Positions 6,709 to 64,000 of a stretch of 64,000 nucleotides of DNA are shown here, one piece after another. The position numbers and the translations under genes were made by a program. Under the pieces are notes generated by a model, which was not told where the DNA came from, did no database searches, and saw only the letters and a program-made list of their open reading frames with translations. Positions within the stretch are counted from its first letter, which is position 1, and the number at the start of each line of letters is the position of its first letter. This DNA is from an uncultured Clostridia bacterium. GTDB taxonomy: Bacteria > Bacillota > Clostridia > Christensenellales > CAG-138. The stretch covers positions 23,636 to 87,635 of the forward strand of contig CAMHJE010000001.1 in assembly GCA_946185305.1 (NCBI GenBank), read 5' to 3'.

Positions 6709-6737
6709 ATTGTTCCCCTTGCTTTGCAGCGATATTT

Positions 6738-8144: not shown

Positions 8145-8145
8145 G

Positions 8146-26951: not shown

Positions 26952-26965
26952 AGAAAACGTTTACT
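26952..26965. promoter_or_regulatory. LacI-type operator, site B
   Basis: agaaaaCGtttact, starting about 2 nt after the predicted +1. Confidence 0.5.
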
Positions 26966-26979
26966 CAAACTTTAGCATG

Positions 26980-26993
26980 AGAAAACGATTACC
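26980..26993. promoter_or_regulatory. LacI-type operator, site C
   Basis: agaaaaCGattacc, centred 28 bp downstream of site B. Confidence 0.5.
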
Positions 26994-48316: not shown

Positions 48317-48337
48317 AAAACACAGATTTGACGCATG

Positions 48338-48351
48338 AGTAAACGTTTTCA
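48338..48351. promoter_or_regulatory. LacI-type operator, site D
   Basis: agtaaaCGttttca, upstream of the -35 box of the lipoprotein promoter. Confidence 0.45.
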
Positions 48352-48370
48352 AATTTTTTCCGAAAACCAC

Positions 48371-48399
48371 TTGCATCTATGTAAAGATTATGTTATCAT
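48371..48399 (+). promoter_or_regulatory. Promoter of the triple-repeat lipoprotein gene
   Basis: TTGCAT-17 nt-TATCAT with an extended -10 (TGTTATCAT). Confidence 0.55.
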
Positions 48400-48406
48400 G
48401 CAGTTG

Positions 48407-48420
48407 GGAAAAGGTTTACT
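48407..48420. promoter_or_regulatory. Degenerate operator-like site E
   Basis: ggaaaaGGtttact. The central CG is replaced by GG. It overlaps the predicted +1. Confidence 0.3.
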
Positions 48421-48460
48421 CAAAATTTACCCCTACAAAAATACAAACAGGAGAGAACGT

Positions 48461-50335
48461 ATGAAAAAGGTATCTTGGTTATTGGCAGTTTTGATGCTGC
48501 TTTCGGTCGTTTTCGGCTGTACGGCGACCCCGGCGCCCGCCGCGTCCACGCCGACCGAAGCGCCCGCGGCAACCGTGACCGAAGCGCCCAAGGCAACGGA
48601 AGCGCCCGCACCCACCGAGGCGCCCGCGCCGGAACCCGAGGCCGAACCGGTCAAGGAGCCCGCTGTGTACAACAGCGTCGAGGGCTTTCATGACGATACG
48701 GCGACCGAAGGCGTCTGGCAGTATTATTACAGCATCGACGACGGCGCGACCGTGACCGATCCCTGCGAGGATTACACCGATTACGGCGGATACGGCGGCT
48801 GGCATCCTTGGGAAGGCTCCTATGTGGGCGTCGGCTTCAACCATGACGTCGAAGGGTATCTGGAGTTCAACACCGATCAGCGCGGCGGTTTGATGGGCGT
48901 TCTCGTCTTTGAAGCGCCCGCGGACGGCAAGTATGTCGTGACTGCGCAGATCTGGAACCCGTGGGAGCAGGATCTGGACAGCTACACCGTCAAGAACGAC
49001 AAGTTTGAGACCGTTGTGGAGCAGTCGATGGACGAGCTTGTGGACGTGTACGGCTTCATTACCCCGACCGATGTGGAGATGAAGACCGGCGAAAAGTTGT
49101 ACTTCATGTGCAACTCCAAGAGCGAATCCTGGGCAAGCGCCTATTCCAACGTCACGATCTACTATGAGCCGCAGGACGAATCCGTCTATGTGATTCCGGA
49201 AGTCGTGATGCCGGTTAAGGAAGTGGTCGGCGTCGATCCGGACTTCGAGCAGGAAGCCAAGTGGAACGCGGTAAAGGACTTCGACCGCACCGCTGCGGAC
49301 GGCTCCAACACGCCTTGGGTCTATGCAACGACTGTGGCATGGGGCGAGTTTGCGATCAACGAAAAGTATGAGGAGCAGGATTGGGACGGCGACGGCAAGG
49401 CCGACGCGAACCAGTGGTACTCCGCCGACGGCACCGGCATGGGCTTTAACTTCAACGAAGCCTACGGCGGCAACTATCTCGAACTGAACACGACGGACTA
49501 CGGCGCGACCGTTTCCGCGCTCGGTTTCAAGGCGCCCGCTGCCGGCACCTACGCGTTCAACGGCTATGTTATGAATATCTGGGGCGCGAATGCGAACATG
49601 CTCCGCGTCTATAAGGGCAGCGAGTATTACAAGGACTTCGCCGCCAAGGAATACAAGGAAAAGCCCAACGAGTTTGCGTTCACCGCAAAGCTCGAGGAGG
49701 GCGAGATCGTTTGGCTGTTCGTCGATTCCGAGGGCGGCTGGGTCTCCTCCGCACTGTCCGTGTTCGTCAATGAGACCGAGGATGCGCCGGTCGTCGAGGT
49801 GAATCTGCTGCAGGACGCCAAGTGGGCGGCCTACCGCGACTTTGACCGTACCGCGGCGGACGGCTCCAACACGCCGTGGATCTACGCCACGACCGTGGCA
49901 TGGGGCGAGTTTACGACCAACGTGAAGTATGACGAGCCCGACTGGGACGGCGACGGCGCACCGAACGCGAACCAGTGGTATTCCGAGGACGGCACCGGCA
50001 TGGGCATTTCGTTCTCCTACGATGAGGGCTACCTCGAGCTGAACACGACTGACTACGGCGCGACCGTGTCCTGCCTCGGCTTCAAGGCTCCGGCCGCAGG
50101 CACTTACGCGTTCAACGGCTATGTCCGCAACCCGTGGGGCCAGAGCATGAACCTGCTCCGCGTCTATAAGAACGCCGATTACTTCGCCGACTTCCCGGCG
50201 GGCGAGTTCGTCGATGCGCCGAACGCGTTCGACTTTGAGGTCGAGCTGGCCGAAGGCGACATCGTTTGGGTGTTCGTCGATTCCAACGGCGGCTGGGTCA
50301 GCGCGGCGGTCGCTCTGTTCGTCAACGAGAAGTAA
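48461..50335 (+). CDS. Surface lipoprotein with a Pro/Thr/Ala/Glu linker and three tandem CBM-like domains of about 185 aa
   Basis: Lipobox VVFGCT. Repeats 2 and 3 are nearly collinear (AKW..DFDRTAADGSNTPW.YATTVAWGEF...GFKAPAAGTYAFNGYV...). Repeat 1 is divergent (FEAPADGKYVVTAQIW). Confidence 0.75.
   Translation: MKKVSWLLAVLMLLSVVFGCTATPAPAASTPTEAPAATVTEAPKATEAPAPTEAPAPEPEAEPVKEPAVYNSVEGFHDDTATEGVWQYYYSIDDGATVTDPCEDYTDYGGYGGWHPWEGSYVGVGFNHDVEGYLEFNTDQRGGLMGVLVFEAPADGKYVVTAQIWNPWEQDLDSYTVKNDKFETVVEQSMDELVDVYGFITPTDVEMKTGEKLYFMCNSKSESWASAYSNVTIYYEPQDESVYVIPEVVMPVKEVVGVDPDFEQEAKWNAVKDFDRTAADGSNTPWVYATTVAWGEFAINEKYEEQDWDGDGKADANQWYSADGTGMGFNFNEAYGGNYLELNTTDYGATVSALGFKAPAAGTYAFNGYVMNIWGANANMLRVYKGSEYYKDFAAKEYKEKPNEFAFTAKLEEGEIVWLFVDSEGGWVSSALSVFVNETEDAPVVEVNLLQDAKWAAYRDFDRTAADGSNTPWIYATTVAWGEFTTNVKYDEPDWDGDGAPNANQWYSEDGTGMGISFSYDEGYLELNTTDYGATVSCLGFKAPAAGTYAFNGYVRNPWGQSMNLLRVYKNADYFADFPAGEFVDAPNAFDFEVELAEGDIVWVFVDSNGGWVSAAVALFVNEK
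49256..50332 (+). repeat. Tandem in-frame duplication with a period of 561 bp, inside the lipoprotein gene
   Basis: gccaagtgg... begins at both 49256 and 49817. Long identical runs include gacggctccaacacgcc and gtggcatggggcgagttt. Confidence 0.8.
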
Positions 50336-50424: not shown

Positions 50425-53400
50425 ATGAAACCATTTCGCAAGCAGGAACAGCATTTCACGGCGCTCCGCACGCTGTTGGAGCGCGGCGTGTATCACGCGG
50501 CGGCTCCGCTTTCCATGACGGCCTTGATCACGTCCGATCCCGTGCCGTATGAAAACAGGGCGACAGAGACGATGACGCCGCTTGCGCCCGGCGATCATTG
50601 GGGCGATCTGTTCGACTGCGCATGGGTGCACTTTACCGCGCCGCTGCCCGCCGCATTTCCGCCGGAGGCCGCGCTGTGCCGGCAAAAGCATTGGGCGCTG
50701 CTTGTCGATCTGTCCGCCGAGGGACTGGTGTATAACGCGCTCAGCGAGCCGGTGCAGGGCTTAACGAGTGCCACGTCGCGCAACGAGTTCCCGCTCGGGC
50801 TTTGGGGCAAGCGCACGGTCGAGCTGGCCGATACGATCCAAAACGGACGCATCGATTTTTGGGCGGACTTCACCTGCTGCGACGTGGAGGGACAGTACCG
50901 CAACGGCGGCCGCGTCAAGGAGGCGTGTACCGCTTGGGTGGACGACCTCTGCCGCGACGCGTTCTATGACTGGCAGATCGTCCAAAGCCTGTTTGTCGGG
51001 CTGATGGAAAACGGCGATCCCTACGGCGAGGAGGTCGGCGCGGTTTTGGAGCGCGCGGCGGCGGTTCTGGAGAATGCGCTCGGGCTGACCTATTCCGAAG
51101 CGGAAGGCATGCAGTCCGGCACCACGCCGTTTTTCGGCCGCGACGCATACTTTACCGACGAAACGCCGAGCGCCGTCGAAGCCGCGGGCGAGCGCCTTTC
51201 GATCTGGCCGGACGCGGAAACCGAACCGACCAAAAGGACGCAGCTTGTTTTGCAGCAGGACGCGCTGACCGAGGTGCGCCGGATTCTTGCCGAGGTGCTG
51301 GACAGAAAAAACGAGCATCCCGATTACGTGTATTCCGCCATCGGGCACAGTCATCTCGATTTGCTGTTCCTTTGGACGGAGCGCGAGACATACCGCAAGA
51401 GCGCGCGCACGATTGCGAACGTGCTGCGGATCATGGATATTGATCCGAACTATCAGTTTACGCTGAGCCAGGCGCCGGTCTACCGGTGGCTGAAGGCGCA
51501 GTATCCGTCCCTGTACCGGCGGCTTTTACGCCGCGTGGAGGAGGGGCGGCTCGAAATCGTCGGCGCGCTGTATATCGAGTGCGACACGAACCTGCCCTGC
51601 GGCGAATCGCTCGCACGGCAGCTGCTGTACGGCAAACGCTTTTTCCGCGAAGAATTTCATAAAGATATGCGCGTTTGCTTTTTGCCCGACGTTTTCGGCT
51701 ATTCGGCGGCGCTGCCGCAGCTGTTGAAGCTCGCGGATGTGCCCTACTTTACGACCAACAAGCTTTCCATGAACGACACGAACCGTTTCCCGCGCTATAC
51801 GTTCTGGTGGCACGGGCTCGACGGGACGCGCGTTCTGACGCACATGCCGCCCGAAAACAGCTACACCTCGGCGGTCGTGCCGCAGATGGCGCTGTACGGC
51901 TATTACCACGACACCGACAAGGACCTTTGCCCGCGCGGACTGGAGCTGTTCGGCCTCGGCGACGGCGGCGGCGGGCCGGGCTTGGAGCATGTCGAGCGGC
52001 GCAGGCGGACGAGAAACCTCAAGGGCTGTCCGCCGTTTGAGGACGAGTTTGTCGTGGACTTTTTCGACCGGATCGCCAAGGACGCCGACCGCTATCGCGC
52101 ATGGCACGGCGAGCTGTACTTTGAACGGCATCAGGGCACCTATACCTCGATTGCGCGGCAAAAGCGGTGGAACCGCACGCTCGAAACCGACCTGCATGCG
52201 TTGGAGCTTGCGGCGTCGCTTGCGCTCGGTACGGACGGTTACGAGTACCCGGCGGCATGGCTGAAAAGCGCGTGGGAGGATGTGCTGTTATACCAGTTCC
52301 ACGACTGTCTGCCCGGTTCCGCGATCCCGCCTGTGTATGAGCAGACGCAGGCGCGCTATGCCGAGCTGCATGCGCAGGCCGAGGGGAAGCTGCAGGAAGC
52401 CCTTGCTGCGCTGACCCAGCACATGGGTAGGGCCGGTGCGCATGGCACGGTCGTGCTGAATCCGTCGCCGTTTGCGCGAACCGAGCGGATCGGCAGCGGC
52501 TTTGCGCCGGTCACGCTGCCGCCGTGCAGCGCGGTGTGGCTCGATGGCGAGATCCCCCAAGCGCGCACAACCGTGTCGGCACAGCAGCCGCCGTACACGC
52601 TCGAAAACGAATACCTTTGCGTGACCGTTCATCCGGACGGCACGATCACCGACCTATACGATAAGCGCACGGGCAGACGGCCTTTGGCGAACGATAAAGC
52701 CGGCAACGTTTTGACGCTCTACCCCGACGAGCTGACGCATTGGGACATCAACAAGGCGTATCTGCATGAACAGGGGCAGCGGGCAATCTGCACGGCCTGC
52801 GAACGGTTTTCAACCGAGACCGCCGAGGGCGTGCGTCTAACTTATGCGGTCGGCGAGCACTCGACGCTTTGGCAGACGATCACGCTCGAAAAGGGCAGCG
52901 CACGACTTACATTCGACTGTCATGCGGATTGGCAGGAGGAATACCAAATGCTGCGCGTTTCGTTCCCGACCTCGATCGTCACGGATCACGCAACGTGCGA
53001 AATCCAGTTCGGCCACCTCGACCGTCCGACGCATCACAATACGTCGTGGGACGAGGCGAAGTTTGAGGTCTGCGCGCAGCGCTGGGTCGATATGACCGAC
53101 GCGGCGGGCGGCGCGGCGCTGCTGGCGGACTGCAAATACGGCTATAAGGTGTGGGACAACGTGCTCGACCTTTGCCTGCTGCGCAGTCAGAACTGTCCCG
53201 CCGAGCACGGCGATATCGGCGAACATGCGTTCACCTACGCGCTGCTGCCGCACGACGGCGATGCGTATGACGGCGGCGTGATCGCGGAGGGCTACCGGCT
53301 GACCTATCCGCTGCCGCACCTAAGCGTCGTCGGCGCGGGCGGCGAAACGGCGCTGTGTCCGTTCCGGGTCACGGCGGGCACGGCGGTGCTCGAAACCGTC

Positions 53401-53616
53401 AAAAAGGCCGAGGACAGCGATCAACTCGTCCTGCGGCTCTATGAGGCCAAGGGCGGCGCGACGACCGCGCGGCTTGCGCTTGCGGGTTATGCGCCGGCGG
53501 CGATCTGCAATCTGTTGGAGGAGCCGACGGGAGAAGCGTATACGTGGGAAAACGGCGAGCTGGTTCTGCCGTTCCATCCGTTTGAAATCAAATCCATTCT
53601 GGTACAACGAACCTGA
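50425..53616 (+). CDS. GH38 alpha-mannosidase (MngB-like, cytoplasmic)
   Basis: AIGHSHLDLLFLW metal-binding N-terminal motif. 1063 aa with a GH38 domain order. Confidence 0.88.
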   Translation: MKPFRKQEQHFTALRTLLERGVYHAAAPLSMTALITSDPVPYENRATETMTPLAPGDHWGDLFDCAWVHFTAPLPAAFPPEAALCRQKHWALLVDLSAEGLVYNALSEPVQGLTSATSRNEFPLGLWGKRTVELADTIQNGRIDFWADFTCCDVEGQYRNGGRVKEACTAWVDDLCRDAFYDWQIVQSLFVGLMENGDPYGEEVGAVLERAAAVLENALGLTYSEAEGMQSGTTPFFGRDAYFTDETPSAVEAAGERLSIWPDAETEPTKRTQLVLQQDALTEVRRILAEVLDRKNEHPDYVYSAIGHSHLDLLFLWTERETYRKSARTIANVLRIMDIDPNYQFTLSQAPVYRWLKAQYPSLYRRLLRRVEEGRLEIVGALYIECDTNLPCGESLARQLLYGKRFFREEFHKDMRVCFLPDVFGYSAALPQLLKLADVPYFTTNKLSMNDTNRFPRYTFWWHGLDGTRVLTHMPPENSYTSAVVPQMALYGYYHDTDKDLCPRGLELFGLGDGGGGPGLEHVERRRRTRNLKGCPPFEDEFVVDFFDRIAKDADRYRAWHGELYFERHQGTYTSIARQKRWNRTLETDLHALELAASLALGTDGYEYPAAWLKSAWEDVLLYQFHDCLPGSAIPPVYEQTQARYAELHAQAEGKLQEALAALTQHMGRAGAHGTVVLNPSPFARTERIGSGFAPVTLPPCSAVWLDGEIPQARTTVSAQQPPYTLENEYLCVTVHPDGTITDLYDKRTGRRPLANDKAGNVLTLYPDELTHWDINKAYLHEQGQRAICTACERFSTETAEGVRLTYAVGEHSTLWQTITLEKGSARLTFDCHADWQEEYQMLRVSFPTSIVTDHATCEIQFGHLDRPTHHNTSWDEAKFEVCAQRWVDMTDAAGGAALLADCKYGYKVWDNVLDLCLLRSQNCPAEHGDIGEHAFTYALLPHDGDAYDGGVIAEGYRLTYPLPHLSVVGAGGETALCPFRVTAGTAVLETVKKAEDSDQLVLRLYEAKGGATTARLALAGYAPAAICNLLEEPTGEAYTWENGELVLPFHPFEIKSILVQRT

Positions 53617-53643
53617 CCGCTGATGCGGCACGAAAGGAGCTTT

Positions 53644-54327
53644 ATGAAACGTTCCCAAATCAATCAAATCATCCGCGAAACGGAAGCGCTTTTGGCGGCG
53701 CATCAGATCCGCCTTGCGCCGTTTTTCAACTGGACGCCCGAGGAGTGGGCCAAGAAGGGTCACGAATGTGACGAGATCCGGGACAACGCGCTCGGCTGGG
53801 ACGTGACGGACTTCGGCGCGGGCGATTTCGACAATATCGGCCTGACCGCGCTGACGATCCGCAACGGCAACGCCAAGGAGCCGGGCAAGTATCCGAAGCC
53901 CTATGCCGAAAAAATCCTGATCGCGCGCGAGGGACAGGTCACACCGCTGCACTTCCATTGGTACAAGATGGAGGACATCATCAACCGCGGCGGCGGGGTG
54001 CTGATGATGCAGCTGTATAACGCGACCGAAAACGAGGAACTCGACCTTGTGAACCCGGTTGAGATCGTGTCCGACGGCGTGAAGCTGACGATCCCCGCAG
54101 GCGGGTATCTCGAACTGCAGCCGGGGCAGAGCGTGACCTATACGCAATATCTCTATCACGCGTTCTGGGGCAAAAAGGGCACCGGCGACGTGATCGTGGG
54201 CGAGGTTTCGATGTGCAACGACGACAACACCGACAATCGCTTTTACGACGTGCCGGGGCGCTTCCCGGCCATCGACGAGGACGAAGCACCTTACCGCCTG
54301 CTGTGCAACGAGTACCCGAACGCATGA
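53644..54327 (+). CDS. D-lyxose/D-mannose ketol-isomerase (cupin)
   Basis: TPLHFHWYKMEDIINRGGG cupin metal motif. AAAGGAG RBS before MKRSQINQ. Confidence 0.8.
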   Translation: MKRSQINQIIRETEALLAAHQIRLAPFFNWTPEEWAKKGHECDEIRDNALGWDVTDFGAGDFDNIGLTALTIRNGNAKEPGKYPKPYAEKILIAREGQVTPLHFHWYKMEDIINRGGGVLMMQLYNATENEELDLVNPVEIVSDGVKLTIPAGGYLELQPGQSVTYTQYLYHAFWGKKGTGDVIVGEVSMCNDDNTDNRFYDVPGRFPAIDEDEAPYRLLCNEYPNA

Positions 54328-55388
54328 GACCGTGGTTTGACGCGCATGTGCATGTTCTCGGCGGCAGGCCCGATGCACTCGATGAGTTGCGGCGGATCGA
54401 GACCGGCTACGGCTATACCGACGCCAATCTGCTTTCGGTCGAGGGCATGGACGATGCGGCGCAGAACGCGCTTGCGATCGCGTGGAAGCTGGACGGCGAG
54501 CGGGAGGCGGCCGAAACGGACGGCGTTTCGCATCGGTATGCGCTCGGCGGGCTGCACCATCGGTATGCGTATGATTACCGAAAAGAGCTCGAAACGCTGT
54601 GGGCGCTCGGCTTCGACGGGCTGAAAATGATCGAAAACAAGCCGACCGAGCGGCGGCGGTGGGGGATCGCGCAGAACGATCCCGCACTCGATCCGCTGTA
54701 TGCCTATGCGGAGGAAAACGATATCCCGCTGCTGATCCACGTCAACGATCCACGCGAATTTTGGGACGAAAAACGCTGTCCGGCATGGGCACGGGACGCG
54801 GGTTACTTTTACGACGGCAGTTTCGTTTCGTTCGAGCAGATCCTTTCGGAATCGCTCGATATGCTGAAAAAGCACCCGCGCCTTCGGATCTGCTTTGCGC
54901 ATTTTCTGTTCCTTTCGGACGATGAGCCTGCGCTGCGCGACATTCTGCAAGCGTACCCGAACGTGTATCTCGACGTGACCGCGGGCACCGAAATGTACCC
55001 GAACTTTGCGCGCGATCCCGCCGTGTGGCGGCGGTTTTTCGGGGATTTTGCGGATCGCATCCTATACGGCACCGACAACTGCGCGCCGATGAACGCGGAG
55101 GACAAGCGCATTGCGGACGTATTGAACAACCTCGAACGTCGGTTCTTTTTATCGCGCGATCCGATCCCGCTTTGGGAGGATACGGTGGAAGGGCTCGGCC
55201 TTGCACCGGACGGCGTACAGGCGCTGCTTTACGGCAACGCAAAGCGATTTTTCGGGGCGAAACCGCGCCCGGTGAACCGCGTTATCGCCTGTCGTTACTT
55301 AAGGGAACGGCTATCCGATAAAAGTTTGCAGCTTACCGAGCGGGAGTACGAAATCACGACAAAAACTCTTGCGAAATGCTTGCAATGA
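54324..55388 (+). CDS. Amidohydrolase_2-type metal-dependent TIM-barrel hydrolase
   Basis: WFDAHVHVLGG at the N-terminus, LLIHVND and YGTDN. ATGA overlap with the isomerase stop. Confidence 0.7.
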   Translation: MRPWFDAHVHVLGGRPDALDELRRIETGYGYTDANLLSVEGMDDAAQNALAIAWKLDGEREAAETDGVSHRYALGGLHHRYAYDYRKELETLWALGFDGLKMIENKPTERRRWGIAQNDPALDPLYAYAEENDIPLLIHVNDPREFWDEKRCPAWARDAGYFYDGSFVSFEQILSESLDMLKKHPRLRICFAHFLFLSDDEPALRDILQAYPNVYLDVTAGTEMYPNFARDPAVWRRFFGDFADRILYGTDNCAPMNAEDKRIADVLNNLERRFFLSRDPIPLWEDTVEGLGLAPDGVQALLYGNAKRFFGAKPRPVNRVIACRYLRERLSDKSLQLTEREYEITTKTLAKCLQ

Positions 55389-55440: not shown

Positions 55441-56445
55441 ATGCAGAAGAAAATTTCGATCAAGGATATTTCCGAACAGGCCGACGTGTCGATTGCGACG
55501 GTGTCGCGCGTGATCAATAAAAACGGCCGCTACTCCAAGGAAACGGAGGAGCGGGTGCTGCGCGTGATCCGGGAAAACAACTATCAGCCGAACCTGATTG
55601 CAAAGGGGCTTCGGGTGCAGCGCATGAAGAATGTGGGCATACTTGTCCCGGATATCAAGAACGAATTTTTCACCAAGCTCGTTTATGAGATCGAGCGCAA
55701 CCTCTTTGCCGCAGGCTATGAAACCTTCGTCTGCAACACCGACGAGGACGAATCCATCGAGCGCCAGCATCTGGCCATGATGCAGATGCAGAGCGTTTGC
55801 GGACTGATCTTCATCGCTGGCAGCGCGCCCGCCGCCTCCGGTCGCAAGGAGCATATCCCGACCGTCTATATCGACCGCATCCCGGCCGAGCCCGGCCAAA
55901 ACGACTGCATGATCACCAGCGACAACGTCGAGGGCGGCTACCTTGCAACCAAGGAGCTTTTGGAGCAGGGCGCGCGCCGCATCCTGTTTATGACAAGCCG
56001 CCGCCGCGTCTCCTGCTATGCCGAACGCTTCGAGGGCTATTGCAAGGCGCTCCGGGAATTCGGGCTAAAAGAAACCGACCGCATGGTGGTCGCGCTGAAC
56101 TCCGTTCGCTATCAGGACGCTTACGACAGCATGAACGCATTGTTGGACGAGGGCGCTTCGTTCGACGGCGTGTTCGCCGGGTCCGACTGGCTCGCGCTCG
56201 GCTGTTACCGCGCGCTGTGCGAGCACGGCAAGCGCATCCCGGCGGATGTGAAGCTGGCGGGCTACGACGATATCTCGATCACCGCGTTCAACGCCATTCC
56301 GATCACGACCGTGCATCAAAAGGTGGACGAAATGGGGCGCCTCGCCGCGCAGCAGCTGATCGCCGTCATCGAGGGCGAGTCGGTGGAGAAGCGCCTTTCG
56401 CACGTTCCCGTTACCCTTGTGCCACGTGCGTCCACGCGCGGCTGA
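55441..56445 (+). CDS. LacI-family transcriptional regulator
   Basis: HTH IKDISEQADVSIATVSRVINKNG plus a periplasmic-binding-protein-like sugar-binding core. Confidence 0.92.
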   Translation: MQKKISIKDISEQADVSIATVSRVINKNGRYSKETEERVLRVIRENNYQPNLIAKGLRVQRMKNVGILVPDIKNEFFTKLVYEIERNLFAAGYETFVCNTDEDESIERQHLAMMQMQSVCGLIFIAGSAPAASGRKEHIPTVYIDRIPAEPGQNDCMITSDNVEGGYLATKELLEQGARRILFMTSRRRVSCYAERFEGYCKALREFGLKETDRMVVALNSVRYQDAYDSMNALLDEGASFDGVFAGSDWLALGCYRALCEHGKRIPADVKLAGYDDISITAFNAIPITTVHQKVDEMGRLAAQQLIAVIEGESVEKRLSHVPVTLVPRASTRG

Positions 56446-56510: not shown

Positions 56511-56524
56511 GGAAAACGATTAAC
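56511..56524. promoter_or_regulatory. LacI-type operator-like site F
   Basis: ggaaaaCGattaac, immediately 5' of the ROK gene RBS (CCGGAGG). Confidence 0.4.
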
Positions 56525-56534
56525 CGGAGGAACT

Positions 56535-57449
56535 ATGGAAGCCATCGAAGTTTTGCTCAGCATGGATATCGGCGGCACGAACTGCCGCATGGGACTGTGC
56601 AGCAGGGACGGCACGCTGTATGAAAAGGAGATCGTCTCGACCGAGACGATGGCGGAGGAGGGCTTTGCGGATGCGCTTGTGCGCCGCATGCGCGCCTTTT
56701 TGCAGCGGGCGGGCAAGGCATACGCGGTGCGCGGCATAGCCATGGGCTTTCCCGCCACGATCGACAAGGCGCGGCGCGTCGTGCTGCAGGCGCCGGCCAT
56801 CGCGGGCATGGAGCACTTTGCGGTCTGCGATCTGCTCGAAGGCGCGTTCGGCCTGCCCGTGTTTTTGGAAAAGGATGTGAACCTGCTGTTCGAGTACGAC
56901 CGCAAGAACCTGCACCTGCCGGACGAGGGCTTGGCCATCGGCATTTATTTCGGCACCGGCATCGGCAACGCGATCTTCTATAACGGTAAACCGTTCCTCG
57001 GCGCGAACGGCGTCGCAGGCGAGCTCGGTCACATTCCACAATGGAAGAACACGCGTGAATGCGGCTGCGGCAACATCGGCTGCCTCGAACCGTTCGGCGG
57101 CGGCAAGCGATTGGCCGAGCTGTGCAGAACGACCCATCCCGACGCCAATATCCGCACGATCTACCGCGACTGTGCGGGCGATCCCGACGTATGGGGGCAG
57201 GTGGACGCGATGGCGATAGCGGTGGCGACCGAGGTCAATATCCTCGACCCGGCTTATGTCGTGCTCGGCGGGGGCCTTTTGCAGATGGAGGGCTTCCCGA
57301 TCCCGTATTTCGAGCAAAAAATCAGGGCCTACGTGCGTAAGCCCTATCCCGAACAAAATTTGCGGCTCGTCTATTCCCGTCCCGATCAGGAGAACGGCAT
57401 CATCGGCGCCGCGTTCTACGGCTGGGAGCAGCTCAACCGTCAGGCCTGA
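56535..57449 (+). CDS. ROK-family sugar kinase
   Basis: LSMDIGGTNCRMG ATP-binding motif and the ROK zinc motif CGCGNIGCLE. Start at MEAIEVLL. Confidence 0.85.
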   Translation: MEAIEVLLSMDIGGTNCRMGLCSRDGTLYEKEIVSTETMAEEGFADALVRRMRAFLQRAGKAYAVRGIAMGFPATIDKARRVVLQAPAIAGMEHFAVCDLLEGAFGLPVFLEKDVNLLFEYDRKNLHLPDEGLAIGIYFGTGIGNAIFYNGKPFLGANGVAGELGHIPQWKNTRECGCGNIGCLEPFGGGKRLAELCRTTHPDANIRTIYRDCAGDPDVWGQVDAMAIAVATEVNILDPAYVVLGGGLLQMEGFPIPYFEQKIRAYVRKPYPEQNLRLVYSRPDQENGIIGAAFYGWEQLNRQA

Positions 57450-58333
57450 GCCGCCCGGATCGCTTCGGCAAGCCGCGCGTTCCACGCCTGCGCCTGTTCC
57501 TTTGTGGCGGCGGGCAGCTCTTTGAGCGTGTAGCTTCGTCCGACGCCCGCCCACTTTTGCACGCCGATGGTATGATACGGCAGGATCTCGTATCGCTCGA
57601 TGTTCGGATGCGCGGCGATCACCCGCCCCGCGAACGCAAAGTGCGCGTCGGTATCGTTGACGCCCGGGATGATCGGCAGCCGCAGCCAGATCGGTTTTTG
57701 CACCGCCGAGAGCGTTTCAAGCGTCGTCTGCCAGCGCGCAAAGTCCCCGCCGGTGTACGCTTTCAGCGTTTCGGCGTCGGGCGCTTTGCAATCGAGCAGC
57801 CACAGATCGACGAGCGGCAGCAGCGTTTCGAGCGTTTCGGGCGTGATACAGCCGTTCGTTTCGAGCGCGGTGTGCAGCCCTTCGGCCTTGCATTGTTCCA
57901 AACACTCACGCAAAAAGGCGGCTTGCACGGTCGGCTCCCCGCCCGAAAACGTCACGCCGCCGCCGCTTTGCACATAGTAGGCGCGGTCGCGCAGCACGAC
58001 GGCAAGAACCTCGTCCGCGGTCATTTCCCGCCCTGTGATTTTCAGCGCGTTTTGCGGGCAGACCTTGATGCACGCGCCGCATAGGGTACACTTATTTTGC
58101 AGCACGGTATGCGTCCCGTCCGGAAACCGGTGCACCCCGGCAGGGCAGAGGCGGGCGCATCGACGGCACCCGATACAGAGCGCGGGCAGCAGCTCGATTT
58201 CCGGGCGCGGCGAAAACGATTCGGGGTTGTGACACCAAATACAGCGCAGGCTGCAGCCCTTCAAAAAGACGGTCGTGCGGATGCCCGGCCCGTCGTGATA
58301 CGCACAGCGCGAAATATCGAATACGATTCCCAT
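57440..58333 (-). CDS. Glycyl-radical enzyme activating enzyme (radical SAM, with a two-cluster ferredoxin insert)
   Basis: CSLRCIWCHNPE (CX3CX2C), CIGCRRCARLCP and CTLCGACIKVCP. 297 aa. The 3' end overlaps the ROK gene 3' end by 10 bp. Confidence 0.92.
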   Translation of the reverse strand: MGIVFDISRCAYHDGPGIRTTVFLKGCSLRCIWCHNPESFSPRPEIELLPALCIGCRRCARLCPAGVHRFPDGTHTVLQNKCTLCGACIKVCPQNALKITGREMTADEVLAVVLRDRAYYVQSGGGVTFSGGEPTVQAAFLRECLEQCKAEGLHTALETNGCITPETLETLLPLVDLWLLDCKAPDAETLKAYTGGDFARWQTTLETLSAVQKPIWLRLPIIPGVNDTDAHFAFAGRVIAAHPNIERYEILPYHTIGVQKWAGVGRSYTLKELPAATKEQAQAWNARLAEAIRAAQA

Positions 58334-58345
58334 AACTTGACTCCG

Positions 58346-58359
58346 AGAAAACGATTACA
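58346..58359. promoter_or_regulatory. LacI-type operator, site G
   Basis: agaaaaCGattaca, 13/14 identical to site C. It overlaps the predicted +1 of the activase promoter. Confidence 0.5.
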
Positions 58360-58364
58360 CAGCC

Positions 58365-58393
58365 AGTATACCAAACTTTTTCGGCGCTGTCCA
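58365..58393 (-). promoter_or_regulatory. Promoter of the activase gene
   Basis: Minus strand TGGACA-17 nt-TATACT with an extended -10 (TGGTATACT). Confidence 0.55.
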
Positions 58394-58412
58394 TAGCGCG
58401 GAGGGAGACGAC

Positions 58413-60611
58413 ATGACGTTTTATGAATACCTGAAAGCCTTTACCGAAACGTATCGGGCGCATATCCATGACGACGTTTCTTTGCGCGAAGCGTATTGCA
58501 TCGCCGTGCAGAGCCGCTATGAATTTCTGCCGCTGCAGGCGGGCGAGCCGCTTGCCGGGCGCAAGCGCGTCCTGCCGGTCGGCTTTTTGAATGAACCCCT
58601 GCTCGGCAGAAGCGTGTGCTGGTTCGTCGATGAGGGCCGCGCCATGCTCGCCCTCGAAAATGACGGCGCGACCGAAGCCGAGATCGAGGACGCCAAGGCC
58701 ATGCTTGCCTTTTGGCGAACGCAGGAGACGCGGAAAAACCTGCGCGCATCGTACCCGGCGGACATTGCCGAGGCGCTGCCGGAGGATATCTACTGGGAGC
58801 ACAGCGAGGTCGCATTCCCGCTGTACCGCGTCGTCGGTTCATATCTCGATTACGACAAGCTCCTGCGGCTCGGGCTTGACGGCATGAAGGCCGAGATCGA
58901 AGCGTATCAAAAGGCCGCCGCGCCGGGCTCGACCGCCGACGGCCTCTATCGCGGATGCCGGATCGCGCTCGATGCGCTGTCCGACGTTGCGCGCCGTTAT
59001 GCCGAAAACGCCGCGGCGCTCGGCAATGCACGGCTTTCTGTGGCACTCAACAAGATCGCACATGAAAAGCCGGATACTTTCTTGGAGGCGATCCAGCTGG
59101 CATGGCTGTACAGCCTGATTTCCGGCGTGCTGAATTACGGCCGCATGGACGATTACCTCGGGGACTATTTGGCGCGCGATCTGGACAGCGGCGCGATCAC
59201 CGAGGCCGAGGCGCTGGACATTCTCTGCTGCCAATGGCGGCTGATTGACGAGCGCAAGACCGTGTTCCACGGCCGCGTGATCATCGGCGGGCGCGGACGG
59301 CACAACGAAGCGAACGCCGACCGCTTTGCCATGCTTGCGATGGAAGCCTCCCGCATCGTCGCGGAAGCCGAGCCGCAGCTTTCCCTGCGCTTTTACGAAG
59401 GGCAGAACCCCAAGCTGATGGAAAAGGCGCTCGACGTGATCGGCGAGGGCAAGGTTTACCCGATGCTCTATAACGACGATGTGAATATCCCGTCCGTGAT
59501 GCGCGCGTTTGATCTGCCCGAAAGCGAAGCGGTCAATTATTGCTTTTTCGGCTGCGGCGAGTATGTGATCAACAAGCGCAGCACCGGCTCCCCGAACGGG
59601 ATCATCAATCTTTTGAAGGCGCTCGAAATTACGCTGTTCAACGGGCATGACGTGCTCGATCCCAAGGCGCGCGGCTTGGCGCTCGGCGCGTTCGAGAGCT
59701 TCACATCGTTCGAGGATTTCTACGCCGTATACAAGGAACAGCTTGCGTTCTATATCGAAAAGCTCGCGCGGTGCGAGAAGATGGAGTACGACTATTGCGC
59801 CAAGGTCGGCTCGTTCCTCTACATCTCGATGCTGATGGACGACTGCATGGCGCGCGGCAAAAGCCTGCTCGCGGGCGGCGTCCGCTATGAGGGCGGCACG
59901 CTCGAAACCTACGGCAATATCAATACCGCGAACAGCCTCTATGCGATCAAAACGCTCGTGTTCGAGCAAAAAAAGATCGCGCCCGATATGCTGCTTCGGG
60001 CGCTGCAAAGCAATTTCGAGGGGTATGAAGCGGAAAGGCGGATGCTGCTCGACGCCGAAAAGTACGGCAACGATCAGGACGGCGCGGACGCGATGGCCGT
60101 GGATCTGCACGAATATGTCTGCCGCACGGTGCGCGATCTGGCGCCGCAGGTGGGGCTGCACAGCTACATGGTCGTCATCATCAACAACGAAGCGAATACG
60201 GTGCTCGGCCGGTTCACGGCGGCTTCCGCGGACGGGCGCAAGGCGCGCGAGCCGATGGCGAATGCGAACAACCCGGCGGGCGGTACGGATCAAAACGGCG
60301 TCACGGCCATGCTCAATTCGCTTGTGAAGCTGCGCACCGACATCCACGCGGGCGCGGTGCAGAACATGACGTTCTCGCCCGAGCTGTTCAACGATAACCG
60401 CCCGGTACTGCGGGCGCTGCTGCAGACGTATTTTGACAACGGCGGCCCGCAATGCATGATCAACGTTCTGCACAGAGGCGATTTGGAGGACGCGATGGCG
60501 CACCCGGAGCGGCATCAAAGCCTGCTCGTCCGTGTCGGTGGCTTCTCGGCCCGATTCGTCACGCTCTCGCCCGACGTGCAGCGGGAGATCGCGTCCAGAA
60601 CGCTGTATTGA
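58413..60611 (+). CDS. Glycyl-radical enzyme (PFL-fold), function unknown
   Basis: C-terminal glycine-radical motif LLVRVGGFSARFV. Single-Cys loop FFGCGEYVI. GGAGGGAG RBS. 732 aa. Confidence 0.88.
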   Translation: MTFYEYLKAFTETYRAHIHDDVSLREAYCIAVQSRYEFLPLQAGEPLAGRKRVLPVGFLNEPLLGRSVCWFVDEGRAMLALENDGATEAEIEDAKAMLAFWRTQETRKNLRASYPADIAEALPEDIYWEHSEVAFPLYRVVGSYLDYDKLLRLGLDGMKAEIEAYQKAAAPGSTADGLYRGCRIALDALSDVARRYAENAAALGNARLSVALNKIAHEKPDTFLEAIQLAWLYSLISGVLNYGRMDDYLGDYLARDLDSGAITEAEALDILCCQWRLIDERKTVFHGRVIIGGRGRHNEANADRFAMLAMEASRIVAEAEPQLSLRFYEGQNPKLMEKALDVIGEGKVYPMLYNDDVNIPSVMRAFDLPESEAVNYCFFGCGEYVINKRSTGSPNGIINLLKALEITLFNGHDVLDPKARGLALGAFESFTSFEDFYAVYKEQLAFYIEKLARCEKMEYDYCAKVGSFLYISMLMDDCMARGKSLLAGGVRYEGGTLETYGNINTANSLYAIKTLVFEQKKIAPDMLLRALQSNFEGYEAERRMLLDAEKYGNDQDGADAMAVDLHEYVCRTVRDLAPQVGLHSYMVVIINNEANTVLGRFTAASADGRKAREPMANANNPAGGTDQNGVTAMLNSLVKLRTDIHAGAVQNMTFSPELFNDNRPVLRALLQTYFDNGGPQCMINVLHRGDLEDAMAHPERHQSLLVRVGGFSARFVTLSPDVQREIASRTLY

Positions 60612-60653: not shown

Positions 60654-62858
60654 TTATTTCATATCCAAGATCACACCGGCATAGGGCGCAAGCTCTGTGC
60701 CGTTTTCGTTTGCCGTCACGTCCCCGACGGCGGCGAGCACCGTCCCGCCCTGCGGATAGGACGCAGGCGCATCGGACAGATTCACAAGCACAAGCCGCGT
60801 CTGCGCGCCGTCGGTGCGCTTGCAGGCAAATACCGCCGAGCCGGTATAGAGGTATGCGGTATCCATCGTGTTCGGGACGAACGTGCGCTTGGCGGCGATC
60901 AGATCGGTGAAGAACGCTTCTAAATTTTCGCCGTTGAGCCGGTAGGTCGCCGGGTCCTCGTCGCCCTGATACGCGAAGATCACGCCGTCGATCCAGCCGA
61001 GCGCCGTCCACAGCGCCTTGGCCTTTTCGGTGCCGTACACGACCTGCGCGCGCGCCGCGTCGAACGTCCATGTCACGGTGTCATGGTTGCCCAAAAACCG
61101 CAGCTTCAGCTGCCCCGGCACCGAGGTGCGGTGCTCGGCTTCGAGATAGGCGGTCAGCGCCGCCGTAAAATCGGCGTCGGAAAGGTTCGCGTGGTTCAGG
61201 TTGAACAGCGTCCGATACAGCGGCATGTCGTAGAACACGTCGGTCACGGCGGCATAGGCGGGGGAGGGATGGAAGTTCTCGGGCAGCAGCAGCACGTTCG
61301 CGCCGCCGGCCTTGAAGCCCTCGCGGTAGCAGGACACGACGTTGCGCCCTGCCATCAGACCCGCCGCCGACGCGCGCACGCCGGTGACGGCTTCGTTCCA
61401 GTTCGGCAGACCGCCCATGCTGCAGTCGATCCGCGCCCCGTCCAAGCCGAGCTTTTCGGCGTAATACTCGGTCAGCTCGAAATTGTAGGCGGCATAGTCC
61501 GGGTGGTTGTAGTCCATCGAGACGCAATCCCACTCGATCCGGTTCTTGCCGTCCTTGTCCTTGGCGATCCAGTCCGGATGCTCCTTCGCAAACGGATAGA
61601 CCGGGCGCGGGCCGTGCGGCACAAAGTCGAACAGCACCTTCAGGCCGAGGCCGTGCGCCGTGTCGATAAACGTTTTCGCCTCGGCTTCGCCGCCATAGCG
61701 CGGGTCGATCACGGCTTGGTCGATCGGCTCATAGACGTTGTCACCCGTGTGCGAGAACACCGGCAGCAGCCAGATCGCATCAAAGCCCATCTCCGCCACC
61801 GGCTGGATGCGCTCGGCGTAAGCGGCAAGCGTCCAGCGGTTGAAATAGTCGGTGTCCATCGTGCCGAACGGGTGCGCCGAATAGATCGCGCAAAGGTTCT
61901 CCGCGGCGGTCGTGTCGGTCGGCGTGTGATAGCCGAGCGCCGTCCAAAGCTGCGCCACCGCGTCATAGGCGTCGGTGGTCGCGTCGTGCAGCGGCAGGTA
62001 CAGCGTCCCGACGGTCATCGGCTTGTCCTTGGTCAAATATCCCTCGCACGCGGCCAAAAAGCCGACGCAAGGCTTTTGATTCTCGTCCGACCAGCTGGCG
62101 GTCGTCCATTTTTCGACCTCATCGACAAACACGATGTTTTCGGCATGCTCGCCCTCCCGAAGCTGTACGACCGGCGCGGCATAGTCGGCGCTTTCGGCGC
62201 GGTAGCGCATCCGCGTCTTATACGCAAGCCGTCCGGACGGCGTACTGCCGGGGAACTCGAATGTCGCGTCCGCGAGCGAAAAGCCCTCGATGCCCGCGGT
62301 CACAAACCCGACACCGTTGATCTCATGCCGATCGTCGTCCGAAACCGACAGCGTTGCCGAAAGCGCAAGCGCGCCGTTGAGCATCGTGTAGCCATAGCGC
62401 ACGGTCAGCGTGCCGTAGGTCATATCGACCGCAAAGCCGTCGCCCGTCGTATCGAACGTGATCGCGTCCGGCGCGGGAAGCTCCTTCATGCGCGGGTAGA
62501 GCGTCGGCAGCTCGTAGGTTGCGAGCTTGCCCATGTCGATGTAGCCGAGCTGATTCAACAGCGCCTTGCCGTCGATGCCGAGGTCGATATAGACGCGCCC
62601 GAAGGACAGCGCGCCGTCCGCGTTCTGCACCCCGGTCAGAAAGCCGGTATGTTTGTCCACGGTCGCAGTCATACCGCCATGGGTGAACGTGATCGTTTCG
62701 TCGCCGTCCGTGCACGTCACGGCGGGGGCGGCGGTCGGTATCGGCGCTTCCGTGGCGGTCGGGGCGGGGCTTTCCTGCGGTGCGGCACAGCCGATCAGCA
62801 GGAACAGCAGCAAAGCAAAGCAGAGAGCCGGCCGCGCCATGCGGGAAAAACGGTTCAT
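60654..62858 (-). CDS. Atypical GH13-family lipoprotein (alpha-amylase superfamily) with an N-terminal domain of about 330 aa
   Basis: Lipobox LLIGCA at the internal start MNRFSRMARP. GH13-like regions VLFDFVPHGP, GARIDCSMG, LLPENF, FLGNHDT. Confidence 0.8.
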   Translation of the reverse strand: MNRFSRMARPALCFALLLFLLIGCAAPQESPAPTATEAPIPTAAPAVTCTDGDETITFTHGGMTATVDKHTGFLTGVQNADGALSFGRVYIDLGIDGKALLNQLGYIDMGKLATYELPTLYPRMKELPAPDAITFDTTGDGFAVDMTYGTLTVRYGYTMLNGALALSATLSVSDDDRHEINGVGFVTAGIEGFSLADATFEFPGSTPSGRLAYKTRMRYRAESADYAAPVVQLREGEHAENIVFVDEVEKWTTASWSDENQKPCVGFLAACEGYLTKDKPMTVGTLYLPLHDATTDAYDAVAQLWTALGYHTPTDTTAAENLCAIYSAHPFGTMDTDYFNRWTLAAYAERIQPVAEMGFDAIWLLPVFSHTGDNVYEPIDQAVIDPRYGGEAEAKTFIDTAHGLGLKVLFDFVPHGPRPVYPFAKEHPDWIAKDKDGKNRIEWDCVSMDYNHPDYAAYNFELTEYYAEKLGLDGARIDCSMGGLPNWNEAVTGVRASAAGLMAGRNVVSCYREGFKAGGANVLLLPENFHPSPAYAAVTDVFYDMPLYRTLFNLNHANLSDADFTAALTAYLEAEHRTSVPGQLKLRFLGNHDTVTWTFDAARAQVVYGTEKAKALWTALGWIDGVIFAYQGDEDPATYRLNGENLEAFFTDLIAAKRTFVPNTMDTAYLYTGSAVFACKRTDGAQTRLVLVNLSDAPASYPQGGTVLAAVGDVTANENGTELAPYAGVILDMK

Positions 62859-62859
62859 C

Positions 62860-64000
62860 TTACACCTCCGCGTCCAGGATCCGGTAGGCCCACGGCGCAA
62901 GCGGGGCGGAGGCTTCGGCGTCCGTGCTGTCAAACAGCAGCTTGCCGGAAGCGCCTGCCGGGATCGGCTGCGGCGCGTCGGAAAGGTTCAGCAGCACCCA
63001 CACGCTGTGCTCACCCTCGGTCTGATACGGGGCGGGCGGCACATCCTCCTTCACACGCAAAAACGCCATCACCGGCGTGCCGGTATGGAGGTACTCGGTG
63101 CGGTTCGAGCCGCGCGGGATAAAGCGGCGGCGGGCGGAAAGCAGTTCGGTGAAGTAGGCCGTCAGGTTCTCGCCGTCGTGCCCGTAGATCGCCGGATCCT
63201 CGTCACCCTGATAGAGCATCGGCACGCCGTCGAGCAGCGCGATCAAGGCAAACAGCGCCTTCGCGCCGTCCGTGCCGTAGCAGTCCACGGCGCGCTTCGA
63301 TTGCCACACCCACGAAACCGTGTCGTGATTGCCCAAAAAGCGCATCTTGTGGTAGTTCGCCGGGAACAGCCACGCTTCGCGCTCCAGGTAGTCGGTCAGC
63401 CCTTCGACGAACGCCGCGGGATCGGTGTGCAGCTTGGCTTCCAGATCGACGAACGCACGGTATAGGTTCATGCCGTAGAACAGGTCGGTGCAATGGTAGT
63501 AGTTCGGGATCGGGTTGAAGTTTTCCGGCAGGATGAACGACGGCTTGCCGCCACGCAGAAACCCTTCGCGGATCGCCTCGGTGATGTGAACGCCGGCAAG
63601 GACGCTGTTGCCGCTCGGCCGATTGCCGGGGTAGGGCCGCCAGTTGGAGAGCCCGCCCATCGCGCAGTCGATCCGCGCGCCGTCCACGCCGAAGCGGTCC
63701 ACATGATCGTGCACCAGCTCCGCGGTGTATTCCTGATAGCCGGGGTGGTTGTAGTCCATCGAGACACATTCCCATTCGTCCTGCAAAGAGCCGTCGCGCC
63801 GCTTGGACGGCCATGTCGGGTTGTCCTGCGCAATCGGAAATTCCGGCGCGGGGCCGTGCGGCACATAGTCGAACAGAATCGTCATGCCGAGCGCGTGCGC
63901 CCTGTCGCAATAGTATTTGCAGCCCTGTTCGCCGCCGTAGCGCGGGTCGATCACGCCCTGATCGGTCGAATGGTAGACGCCGCCCGCGTCATGCTCAAAG
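62860..64000 (-). CDS. Paralogous atypical GH13-family protein; 3' part only, the 5' end lies beyond the window
   Basis: ILFDYVPHGP, GARIDCAMG, ILPENF, FLGNHDT. The frame stays open to position 64000 (…FEHDAGGVYHSTDQGVIDPRYGG). The ORF-track M at 63954 is an internal GTG (Val). Confidence 0.8.
   Translation of the reverse strand, partial: FEHDAGGVYHSTDQGVIDPRYGGEQGCKYYCDRAHALGMTILFDYVPHGPAPEFPIAQDNPTWPSKRRDGSLQDEWECVSMDYNHPGYQEYTAELVHDHVDRFGVDGARIDCAMGGLSNWRPYPGNRPSGNSVLAGVHITEAIREGFLRGGKPSFILPENFNPIPNYYHCTDLFYGMNLYRAFVDLEAKLHTDPAAFVEGLTDYLEREAWLFPANYHKMRFLGNHDTVSWVWQSKRAVDCYGTDGAKALFALIALLDGVPMLYQGDEDPAIYGHDGENLTAYFTELLSARRRFIPRGSNRTEYLHTGTPVMAFLRVKEDVPPAPYQTEGEHSVWVLLNLSDAPQPIPAGASGKLLFDSTDAEASAPLAPWAYRILDAEV

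Follow-up and report, generated by a model that had tools for sequence, protein, structure and literature searches.

A glycyl radical enzyme of an uncharacterised cross-phylum clade, paired with a divergent activase in a sugar-utilisation locus of an uncultured Clostridia bacterium

The 64,000-nucleotide stretch of DNA analysed here, called the window below, comes from an uncultured Clostridia bacterium (Christensenellales, CAG-138; contig CAMHJE010000001.1) and encodes a glycyl radical enzyme (GRE) together with a divergently transcribed activating enzyme (AE, or activase). The two proteins belong to a previously uncharacterised GRE clade that extends across phyla. The gene pair and the control region between its members are laid out as follows.

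58413 to 60611, + strand: glycyl radical enzyme, 732 aa, with PFL-like and Gly_radical domains
57440 to 58333, - strand: GRE-activating radical-SAM enzyme, 297 aa, divergent from the GRE gene, TIGR02494 family
58334 to 58412: divergent control region of 79 bp between the activase and GRE start codons
58365 to 58393, - strand: sigma-70-like promoter TGGACA-17-TATACT with a TG extension, facing the activase gene (a consensus match only)
58346 to 58359: LacI-type operator-like site AGAAAACGATTACA in the activase/GRE spacer

A first-pass annotation of the same DNA had described the GRE as a 732-aa reading frame of the PFL fold carrying the motifs FFGCGEYV and RVGGFSARF, and both motifs were recovered along with the two Pfam domains (PFL-like, PF02901, 1.3e-105; Gly_radical, PF01228, 2e-20). 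The cysteine loop contains G380-C381-G382-E383-Y384, and the glycine loop begins R707-V-G-G710-F, where Gly710, assigned as the radical glycine by the RVxG[FWY] rule, stands 22 residues from the C-terminus. In the HMMER alignment FFGCGEYV is paired with IIGCVEPQ of propanediol dehydratase; because Cys381 falls on Cys438 and Glu383 on Glu440, the GCGE loop keeps the CXE motif, which is common to all C-O, C-N and C-S eliminase GREs and to the newer isomerases (2026 GRE review, PMC13450708). The middle residue is the sole difference from a GCVE loop, and the catalytic Glu is present. Of the earlier description of this loop, the single Cys and the lack of a Cys-Cys pair stand, but its placement outside the eliminase type does not, as CXE is retained. 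Among 83 family sequences taken from related loci in several phyla, on which all signature counts are based, Cys381 and Gly710 are each kept in 83/83, Glu383 in 82/83, and Gly382 and Arg139 in 81/83.

The protein had also been thought to be truncated at its N-terminus, which is not borne out: position 24 of the Pfam profile is already aligned at GRE residue 5. Compared with E. coli YbiW/PflD, about 23 N-terminal residues are missing and there are internal deletions of 6, 13 and 3-4 residues, and a length of about 715-770 aa is found throughout the family. The N-terminal ~140 residues are distinct in sequence, with other GRE families aligning only from about residue 144, and the AF2 model has a pLDDT above 90 over most of residues 1-120 (86.6 for the whole chain, pTM 0.89). 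Foldseek searches with this model, a PFL-like ten-stranded barrel, gave TM 0.81-0.86 at 19-26% identity to about 50 PFL2-type GRE structures. The GRE is equidistant from all of them and has no close neighbour, so the fold does not discriminate function. A pseudogene or truncated relic was considered and rejected, the family being uniformly full length and highly conserved.

The activase carries C27-x3-C31-x2-C34 followed by two CX2CX2CX3CP motifs, CIGCRRCARLCP and CTLCGACIKVCP; its divergent orientation, its 297-aa length and the CX3CX2C motif with two ferredoxin-type clusters are as first annotated. It reaches 313.3 bits with TIGR02494 (cut-off 174.35), has additional Fer4 Pfam matches and falls below every substrate-specific equivalog cut-off, the best being that of the HypD activase (277 against 425). 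With both motif sets shared, it is an ordinary member of the group formed by CutD, HypD-AE, HpsH and similar activases. The spacer measures 79 bp, and a promoter scan of its minus strand found the proposed TGGACA-17-TATACT promoter (10 of 12 consensus positions plus the extended TG). At its other end the activase gene overlaps a convergent ROK-family kinase gene by 10 bp, the ROK stop lying at 57449 and the activase stop beginning at 57440; here, too, the earlier description was accurate. The best reading of these features is that the locus encodes a functional GRE with a dedicated activase.

The GRE is not the orphan it had been called. Besides the adjoining activase, relatives were confirmed in at least 305 species genomes from about 8 phyla (pattern scan, one genome per species). 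A word-index search returned 1,655 homologues, the 120 listed all being at least 55% identical, and an exhaustive search gave about 100 full-length-aligning clusters at 50% identity, reaching down to ~33% identity. Carriers among the Clostridia include rumen and gut lineages, Faecousia, Lachnospiraceae and Christensenellales; elsewhere the family occurs in Ignavibacteria/Melioribacter, Calditrichaceae, Rhodothermales, Verrucomicrobiota, Planctomycetota, Acidobacteriota and Chloroflexota. Two carriers are in culture, Anaerotaenia torta DSM 100431 and Clostridium lacusfryxellense DSM 14205. A literature search found no paper on this clade.

A common signature (LYRxxG, GCGEY, S/T-P-N/S, NN, HAGxVQN, RVGGF) holds down to ~36% identity among the 50%-identity representatives. 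Position 143, which aligns with His166 of propanediol dehydratase and His164 of glycerol dehydratase, is A, G, S or T in the family and never His (Ser143 here), and position 395, aligned with Asp452 and Asp447 of the same two enzymes, is N or S and never Asp (Asn395 here). The barrel strands are rich in kept polar residues (IINNxAN 589-595, HAGxVQN 645-651, TLETYGNxN 496-504). Where the signature ends other GRE families start, in which position 143 is His and the Cys loop is in most cases GC[VIA]E or GCxQ. Five distant GREs of ~710-760 aa (P0237, P0239, P0249, P0251 and P0253) combine a GC[GSN]Q loop, with Gln in place of the CXE Glu, and RVGG[FY]; they may be another uncharacterised group.

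No characterised GRE is closer to the window GRE than ~28% identity. The best identity in the PDB is 22-26%, YbiW is 28% and PflD 26% identical, and all NCBIfam GRE cut-offs are missed, which upholds the earlier claim that the enzyme has no characterised equivalent. The scores were as follows.

TIGR01774 (subfamily): 307 bits, cut-off 678
HypD model: 243 bits, cut-off 1100
CutC model: 239 bits, cut-off 1050
HpsG model: 238 bits, cut-off 1000
NF007437 (formate C-acetyltransferase equivalog, which we take to represent PflD): 192 bits, cut-off 1109
HPAD model: 177 bits, cut-off 1150
IAD model: 177 bits, cut-off 1100
PFL model TIGR01255: 85.6 bits, cut-off 994.2

The GRE thus lies outside the CutC, HypD, HpsG, HpfG, HPAD and IAD equivalogs, which gave 177-243 bits against cut-offs of 1000-1150. 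A formate-lyase acting on pyruvate or 2-ketobutyrate would agree with the database names of relatives, of which P0001, P0011, P0090 and others carry the source annotation 'pyruvate formate-lyase'. Almost no credence can be given to this function: the GCGE loop has a single Cys and no Cys-Cys pair, the TIGR01255 match is limited to the C-terminal ~190 residues (the glycyl radical domain), PFL structures align only over GRE residues 549-731, and the activase has ferredoxin domains and is not of the PflA type.

Propanediol dehydratase of Roseburia inulinivorans (5I2A/5I2G) and glycerol dehydratase of Clostridium butyricum (1R8W) match best in both sequence and fold, with phmmer E-values of 1.7e-69 and 6.4e-68, TM 0.85-0.86 and 24-26% identity. 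These enzymes share with the window GRE the single-Cys CXE loop, the RVxG[FY] loop and a ferredoxin-domain activase. On this basis one could imagine that the window GRE is a common B12-independent diol dehydratase for 1,2-propanediol or glycerol, with propanediol derived from rhamnose freed by the product of a GH106 rhamnosidase gene that lies in the neighbouring operon. However, identity is low, TIGR01774 is missed by a wide gap, and the diol-site His (164/166) and Asp (447/452) are replaced family-wide by Ala/Gly/Ser/Thr and Asn/Ser, which argues against a plain diol dehydratase. The window GRE further differs in its invariant Arg four residues before the His position, in a chain 60-110 residues shorter and in the absence of a microcompartment and propanediol-pathway context; no rhamnose isomerase/kinase/aldolase set, lactaldehyde reductase, aldehyde dehydrogenase or microcompartment genes were found in the window or the relatives scanned. 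Such a function is very improbable.

The Pfam scan of the window covered large, high-GC3 open reading frames (ORFs) of at least 150 aa, and among these there were no matches for bacterial microcompartment (BMC) shell proteins, AdhE, FocA or aromatic or sulfonate catabolism, in line with the first-pass annotation. BMC/EutN Pfam families were likewise absent from the called genes of five related loci (L001-L005). A microcompartment enzyme was considered and rejected.

A partial likeness also exists to IseG, IslA and HpsG, the isethionate and DHPS sulfolyases. These share the CXE loop and bind sulfonate through two residues of the first barrel strand, an Arg and, four positions away, a Gln (IseG Arg187/Gln191). 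By register, Arg139 of the window family stands at the position of their Arg (IseG Arg187, or 189), a placement taken from the spacing to the catalytic Cys and not from an alignment; a 76-residue GRE fragment searched against the PDB gave no matches and so no IseG/IslA alignment of Arg139. The second Arg of the sulfolyases (676/678) has no counterpart in the window GRE, where the strand reads IINNxAN, and no sulfolyase-type sulfite-reduction or sulfonate genes lie near it. Arg139 precedes the His position by four residues and on a beta-strand should therefore face the same way.

The genes that lead up to the activase/GRE pair on the plus strand are the following.

50425 to 53616, + strand: GH38 alpha-mannosidase (glycoside hydrolase family 38), 1063 aa; GH38 in 17 related loci
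53623 to 54327, + strand: D-lyxose/D-mannose isomerase-type (LyxI) cupin; PF07385 327 bits, NF051472 280 against 350
54324 to 55388, + strand: Amidohydro_2 protein, 354 aa (lactonase/decarboxylase/hydratase superfamily); homologue in 21 related loci
55441 to 56445, + strand: LacI-family regulator, RbsR-like (below cut-off); LacI homologue in 36 related loci
56535 to 57449, + strand: ROK-family sugar kinase, 304 aa, its 3' end overlapping the activase 3' end by 10 bp

The kinase passes the NCBIfam allose kinase (AlsK) equivalog NF007251 over its full length (298.4 bits against 253), and ROK genes are present in 23 related loci. In loci L004/L020, L012, L018, L026 and L072 an RpiB/LacAB isomerase and a ribulose-phosphate-3-epimerase-like gene occur in the same cluster as the GRE; these correspond to the other two activities of the allose pathway beside an AlsK-like kinase.

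Whether this setting is kept was read from 85 related loci (L001-L085, 10 kb on either side of the GRE; 81 non-redundant), in which ORFs were clustered and cluster representatives annotated, and from the close relatives P0003, P0007 and P0090. The order GH38-LyxI-Amidohydro_2-LacI-ROK-AE-GRE is kept in relatives at 93%, 80% and 61% identity. The last of these, Anaerotaenia torta, has the same order plus RpiB, a Ru5P-3-epimerase-like gene and DUF4867. The sugar context proposed earlier is thus conserved, and in other phyla it returns in altered form. Within 10 kb of the GRE the following were counted.

Activase: 69/81 loci
LacI or AraC regulator: 54/81 loci
ROK, PfkB or FGGY kinase: 41/81 loci
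Lyx_isomer-type or related (including short) cupin: 34/81 loci
Amidohydro_2 or SMP-30/gluconolactonase-like protein: 29/81 loci
GH38 or GH92 alpha-mannosidase: 20/81 loci
GH13-like pair: 18/81 loci
GFO_IDH_MocA: 16/81 loci
Inosine-uridine nucleoside hydrolase (IUNH) homologue: 12/81 loci
727-aa protein: 12/81 loci
RpiB or Rpe-like: 11/81 loci
Any counted sugar-related cluster (regulators and PhyH excluded): 61/81 loci

Two other arrangements recur. The Ignavibacteria-type cluster reads cupin-AKR-flavodoxin-FGGY-IUNH-SBP-MalK-PhyH-AraC / GRE-AE-SMP30-GFO-GH92 (AKR, aldo-keto reductase; SBP, substrate-binding protein), and a cluster of Christensenellales and other Bacillota reads 727-aa protein-GH13-like-short LyxI / GRE-AE-Amidohydro_2-PfkB. 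A GH92 alpha-mannosidase replaces GH38 in the Ignavibacteria-type loci, and an SMP-30/gluconolactonase-like protein stands in place of Amidohydro_2 in 9 loci of other phyla. As the alpha-mannosidase, lactonase-like and kinase functions are kept while the families that supply them are swapped, a real functional link is indicated rather than inherited synteny. In five Ignavibacteria-type loci (L040, L042, L052, L058 and L065) a flavodoxin, an aldo-keto reductase, a PhyH protein and GH92 are found in the GRE-AE cluster, and the flavodoxin could plausibly supply the activase with electrons. L014 and L023 each hold two paralogous GREs of this family within a 22-kb locus, and in L023 each copy adjoins an FGGY kinase.

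The pair also appears to share its regulation with a large operon upstream, for which these features are relevant.

24348 to 25598, - strand: GH10-like gene
26952 to 26993: two operator-like copies (26952-26965, 12/14; 26980-26993, 13/14), before the glycan operon starting at 27062
27062 to 50335, + strand: upstream part of the same-strand glycan-utilisation operon, with two ATP-binding cassette (ABC) systems, glycosidases and a kinase
56512 to 56523: operator-like site GAAAACGATTAA, between the LacI and ROK kinase genes

The 14-mer AGAAAACGATTACA of the spacer has 4 matches at up to 2 mismatches where 0.18 would be expected. Its 13/14 copy at 26980-26993, already noticed in the first-pass annotation as lying before the ABC/glycosidase unit, is 70 bp upstream of the first gene of that operon, and 12/14 copies start at 26952 and 25751. 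The copies at 26952 to 26993 lie just downstream of a TTGACA..TAAAAT promoter-like pair. For the operator core GAAAACGNTTAC, 12 matches at up to 1 mismatch were found against 0.83 expected. Intergenic copies stand at 25617 and 25752 before the GH10-like gene and at 26953 and 26981 before the operon that opens with an SBP gene, with further copies at 48339 (start of a 666-aa gene), 56512 (LacI/ROK gap) and 58347 (AE/GRE spacer). The spacer site is identical in the related locus L001, and similar palindromes such as AGTAAACGTTTACG occur in the AE-GRE region of L006, L015-L018 and L026. Copies of the core across 33 kb would delimit a putative regulon of the GH10-like gene, the ABC/glycosidase operon, the kinase and the AE/GRE pair. 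This distribution is the pattern of a presumptive LacI-family regulon, and the cluster's own LacI protein is the presumed binder of the operator-like sites. Because the sites are shared, the AE/GRE pair appears to be co-regulated with the ~30-kb glycan operon.

Based on these comparisons, we lean towards a CXE-type GRE of new specificity that would break a C-O bond of a substrate that derives from sugar and is probably anionic, and that probably performs an oxygen-sensitive radical step in anaerobic sugar breakdown. We infer the reaction type, the substrate class, its anionic nature and the identity of the regulator from gene content and conserved residues, and take the mechanism from family chemistry. 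The activase, with its radical-SAM centre and two auxiliary [4Fe-4S] clusters and reduced by flavodoxin or ferredoxin, would put a radical on Gly710, which would then move to Cys381. The Cys381 thiyl would abstract a hydrogen from a carbinol carbon of the substrate, Glu383 of the CXE motif would deprotonate the carbinol hydroxyl, and the resulting ketyl radical would eject an oxygen leaving group (a hydroxyl or an ether or ring oxygen) from the neighbouring carbon before the hydrogen is handed back by Cys381. Hydrogen abstraction, deprotonation by Glu and loss of a leaving group are the common logic of CXE GREs (PMC13450708). The substrate would be a polyhydroxylated sugar derivative from the catabolism of alpha-mannoside-containing glycans, and the cluster's LacI-family repressor would control the pair through the operator copies held in common with the 30-kb operon.

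A sugar-derived phosphate or carboxylate is suggested by the Asn/Gln/His-rich pocket strands, the invariant Arg139 and the neighbouring kinase or lactonase-like, cupin and alpha-mannosidase genes. The place of Arg139 close to the His position, together with the kinase or lactonase-like gene that usually lies beside the GRE and its activase, makes an anionic substrate probable, either a sugar phosphate, which is favoured, or an aldonate.

Several observations weigh against this assignment. The family lacks the His and Asp with which glycerol and propanediol dehydratases promote departure of the hydroxyl, so a simple diol-type dehydration would need other proton donors. GH38, LyxI and ROK alone make up a complete route from mannose to fructose-6-phosphate, for which the GRE is not required. 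The role suggested for Arg139 comes from sequence register and not from a ligand-bound structure. PDB and NCBIfam searches with the Amidohydro_2 protein detected no characterised relative. Finally, the kinase type varies by lineage (ROK, PfkB or FGGY) and in 20/81 loci the 10 kb on either side contain no sugar gene of the list, which makes the link to one defined pathway loose.

The only characterised sugar-acting GREs are the C-O lyases YbiW (1,5-anhydroglucitol-6-phosphate) and PflD (1,5-anhydromannitol-6-phosphate), two GRE isomerases (structures 8ID7/8ID0) that cleave the ring C-O bond of anhydro-hexitol 6-phosphates, CXE GREs being C-O, C-N or C-S eliminases or isomerases (PMC13450708). 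The window GRE could be their analogue if the ROK (AlsK-like) or PfkB kinase made a 1,5-anhydro-hexitol 6-phosphate or a similar cyclic-ether sugar phosphate whose ring the GRE opens, giving a 1-deoxy-ketose phosphate as in 'anhydroglycolysis'. The CXE loop and the setting in a carbohydrate-uptake and phosphorylation cluster are shared, a sugar kinase adjoins the AE/GRE pair in many loci, YbiW is among the top structural matches, and the manno-type context would suit the manno-configured substrate of PflD. GFO_IDH_MocA proteins and aldo-keto reductases, families that include anhydrofructose reductases, are also encoded nearby. However, identities of 28% and 26% are no closer than those to other GREs, and NF007437 gives 192 bits against its cut-off of 1109. 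The His is kept in YbiW and PflD, whose glycine loop reads RVAGY; the window GRE has neither feature. Their clusters pair a phosphotransferase system (PTS) with an FSA aldolase (in E. coli K-12, ybiW and pflD lie beside fsaA and fsaB), whereas window-type loci have ABC transporters, glycoside hydrolases, cupin isomerases and lactonase-like genes. Searches of the window and of L001-L085 (+-10 kb) gave no homologue of FsaA/FsaB (tblastn) or of YbiV, and no PTS genes were seen. The missing FSA aldolase and the low identity argue against a straightforward YbiW/PflD orthologue, and an analogue of this kind seems unlikely.

Alternatively, the GRE could be a radical dehydratase linked to lactones or aldonates. 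In one version a GFO dehydrogenase and a lactonase would make an aldonate, which the GRE would convert to a 2-keto-3-deoxy-aldonate for a PfkB kinase resembling 2-keto-3-deoxygluconate (KDG) kinase; in the other, an aldopyranose hemiacetal would be dehydrated (hydrogen taken from C1, C2 hydroxyl lost) to a 2-deoxy-aldonolactone that the lactonase-like neighbour opens. The unrelated lactonase-type families Amidohydro_2 and SMP-30 lie a few genes from GRE-AE in 29/81 loci, including operons of the forms GRE-AE-Amidohydro_2-PfkB and GRE-AE-SMP30-GFO. Arg139 could bind a carboxylate, and the chemistry would resemble that of two GREs with 2,3-dihydroxypropanesulfonate as substrate, a dehydratase and a sulfolyase. 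Still, the reaction would be without precedent, aldonates can be dehydrated without a radical mechanism, the Amidohydro_2 protein is not demonstrably a lactonase, many loci have no GFO genes, and no KDPG-type (2-keto-3-deoxy-6-phosphogluconate) aldolase turned up, though no search was aimed at one. Taken as a whole this alternative is doubtful, and a sugar-phosphate C-O lyase or dehydratase, including one of the YbiW/PflD kind, is slightly favoured over it.

Perhaps, with a similarly low probability, the clade performs an unprecedented radical sugar reaction. One example would be the dehydration of an aldopyranose hemiacetal, in which a hydrogen is taken from C1 and the hydroxyl leaves C2, to give the 2-deoxy-aldonolactone opened by the kept lactonase-like neighbour; another would be the radical elimination of a substituent, whether glycosidic, ether or ester, adjacent to a carbinol carbon. 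If true, this would be a new oxygen-sensitive entry for manno/lyxo-type sugars in anaerobes of at least 8 phyla, among them Clostridia of the gut and rumen.

GREs carry out chemically difficult anaerobic reactions, and newly assigned clades have opened up metabolism from choline to trimethylamine, from hydroxyproline and from isethionate to H2S, as well as 'anhydroglycolysis' in 2024. The GRE/activase pair described here is ordinary in architecture; its clade has no characterised member, has its own signature and shows a cross-phylum association with mannoside and sugar genes. The clade is an attractive target, being widespread, distinctive in its active site and associated across phyla with genes of glycan and mannoside catabolism, and since cultured strains carry it, its function is directly testable. 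Its assignment would add a second sugar-directed GRE chemistry and would correct thousands of 'pyruvate formate-lyase' annotations.

The remaining features of the glycan region are the following.

39663 to 41846, + strand: 727-aa protein without a Pfam or NCBIfam match
45154 to 46032, + strand: IUNH homologue, RihC-like (below cut-off)
48335 to 50335, + strand: 666-aa protein without a Pfam or NCBIfam match
60654 to 62933 and 62860 to 63954, - strand: two tandem GH13-like genes, convergent with the GRE gene (weak alpha-amylase Pfam matches)

From 27062 the operon runs in its first half through a 972-aa SBP, permeases, NHL, Yip1, DUF5696, permeases, an SBP and the 727-aa protein. The second half of the ~30-kb unit comprises GH106, the IUNH (IU_nuc_hydro) homologue, GH4, PfkB, the 666-aa protein, GH38, the cupin, Amidohydro_2, LacI and ROK. 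The 727-aa protein, GH106, IUNH and the 666-aa protein all recur near GRE relatives. The presence of IUNH in a glycan operon and its recurrence in 12 GRE loci, including Ignavibacteria, suggest a ribosyl or other unusual glycosidic substrate. PDB and NCBIfam searches with the 727-aa and 666-aa proteins, the neighbour clusters c58 and c38 and the short cupin returned nothing informative. The 727-aa and 666-aa proteins stand beside GRE relatives in 12 and 10 loci, the former in differing gene orders, and may be undescribed glycoside hydrolases. The GH13-like pair is kept beside GRE relatives in 18-19 loci, often with two GFO_IDH_MocA genes, and the first gene of the pair carries a lipoprotein-type signal (LLIGC). 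The SBP at 27062-29980 (+ strand) is unusually long at 972 aa; SBP_bac_1 covers only residues 596-872, and the N-terminal ~590 residues match no family. At 5044-9078 (- strand) lies a separate cluster with a canonical GH13 alpha-amylase (487 bits), a GT4 glycosyltransferase and an esterase, and the rest of the first 24 kb is housekeeping: MgsA, chorismate mutase/prephenate dehydratase, a two-component system, a UvrA-like protein and M3 peptidases.

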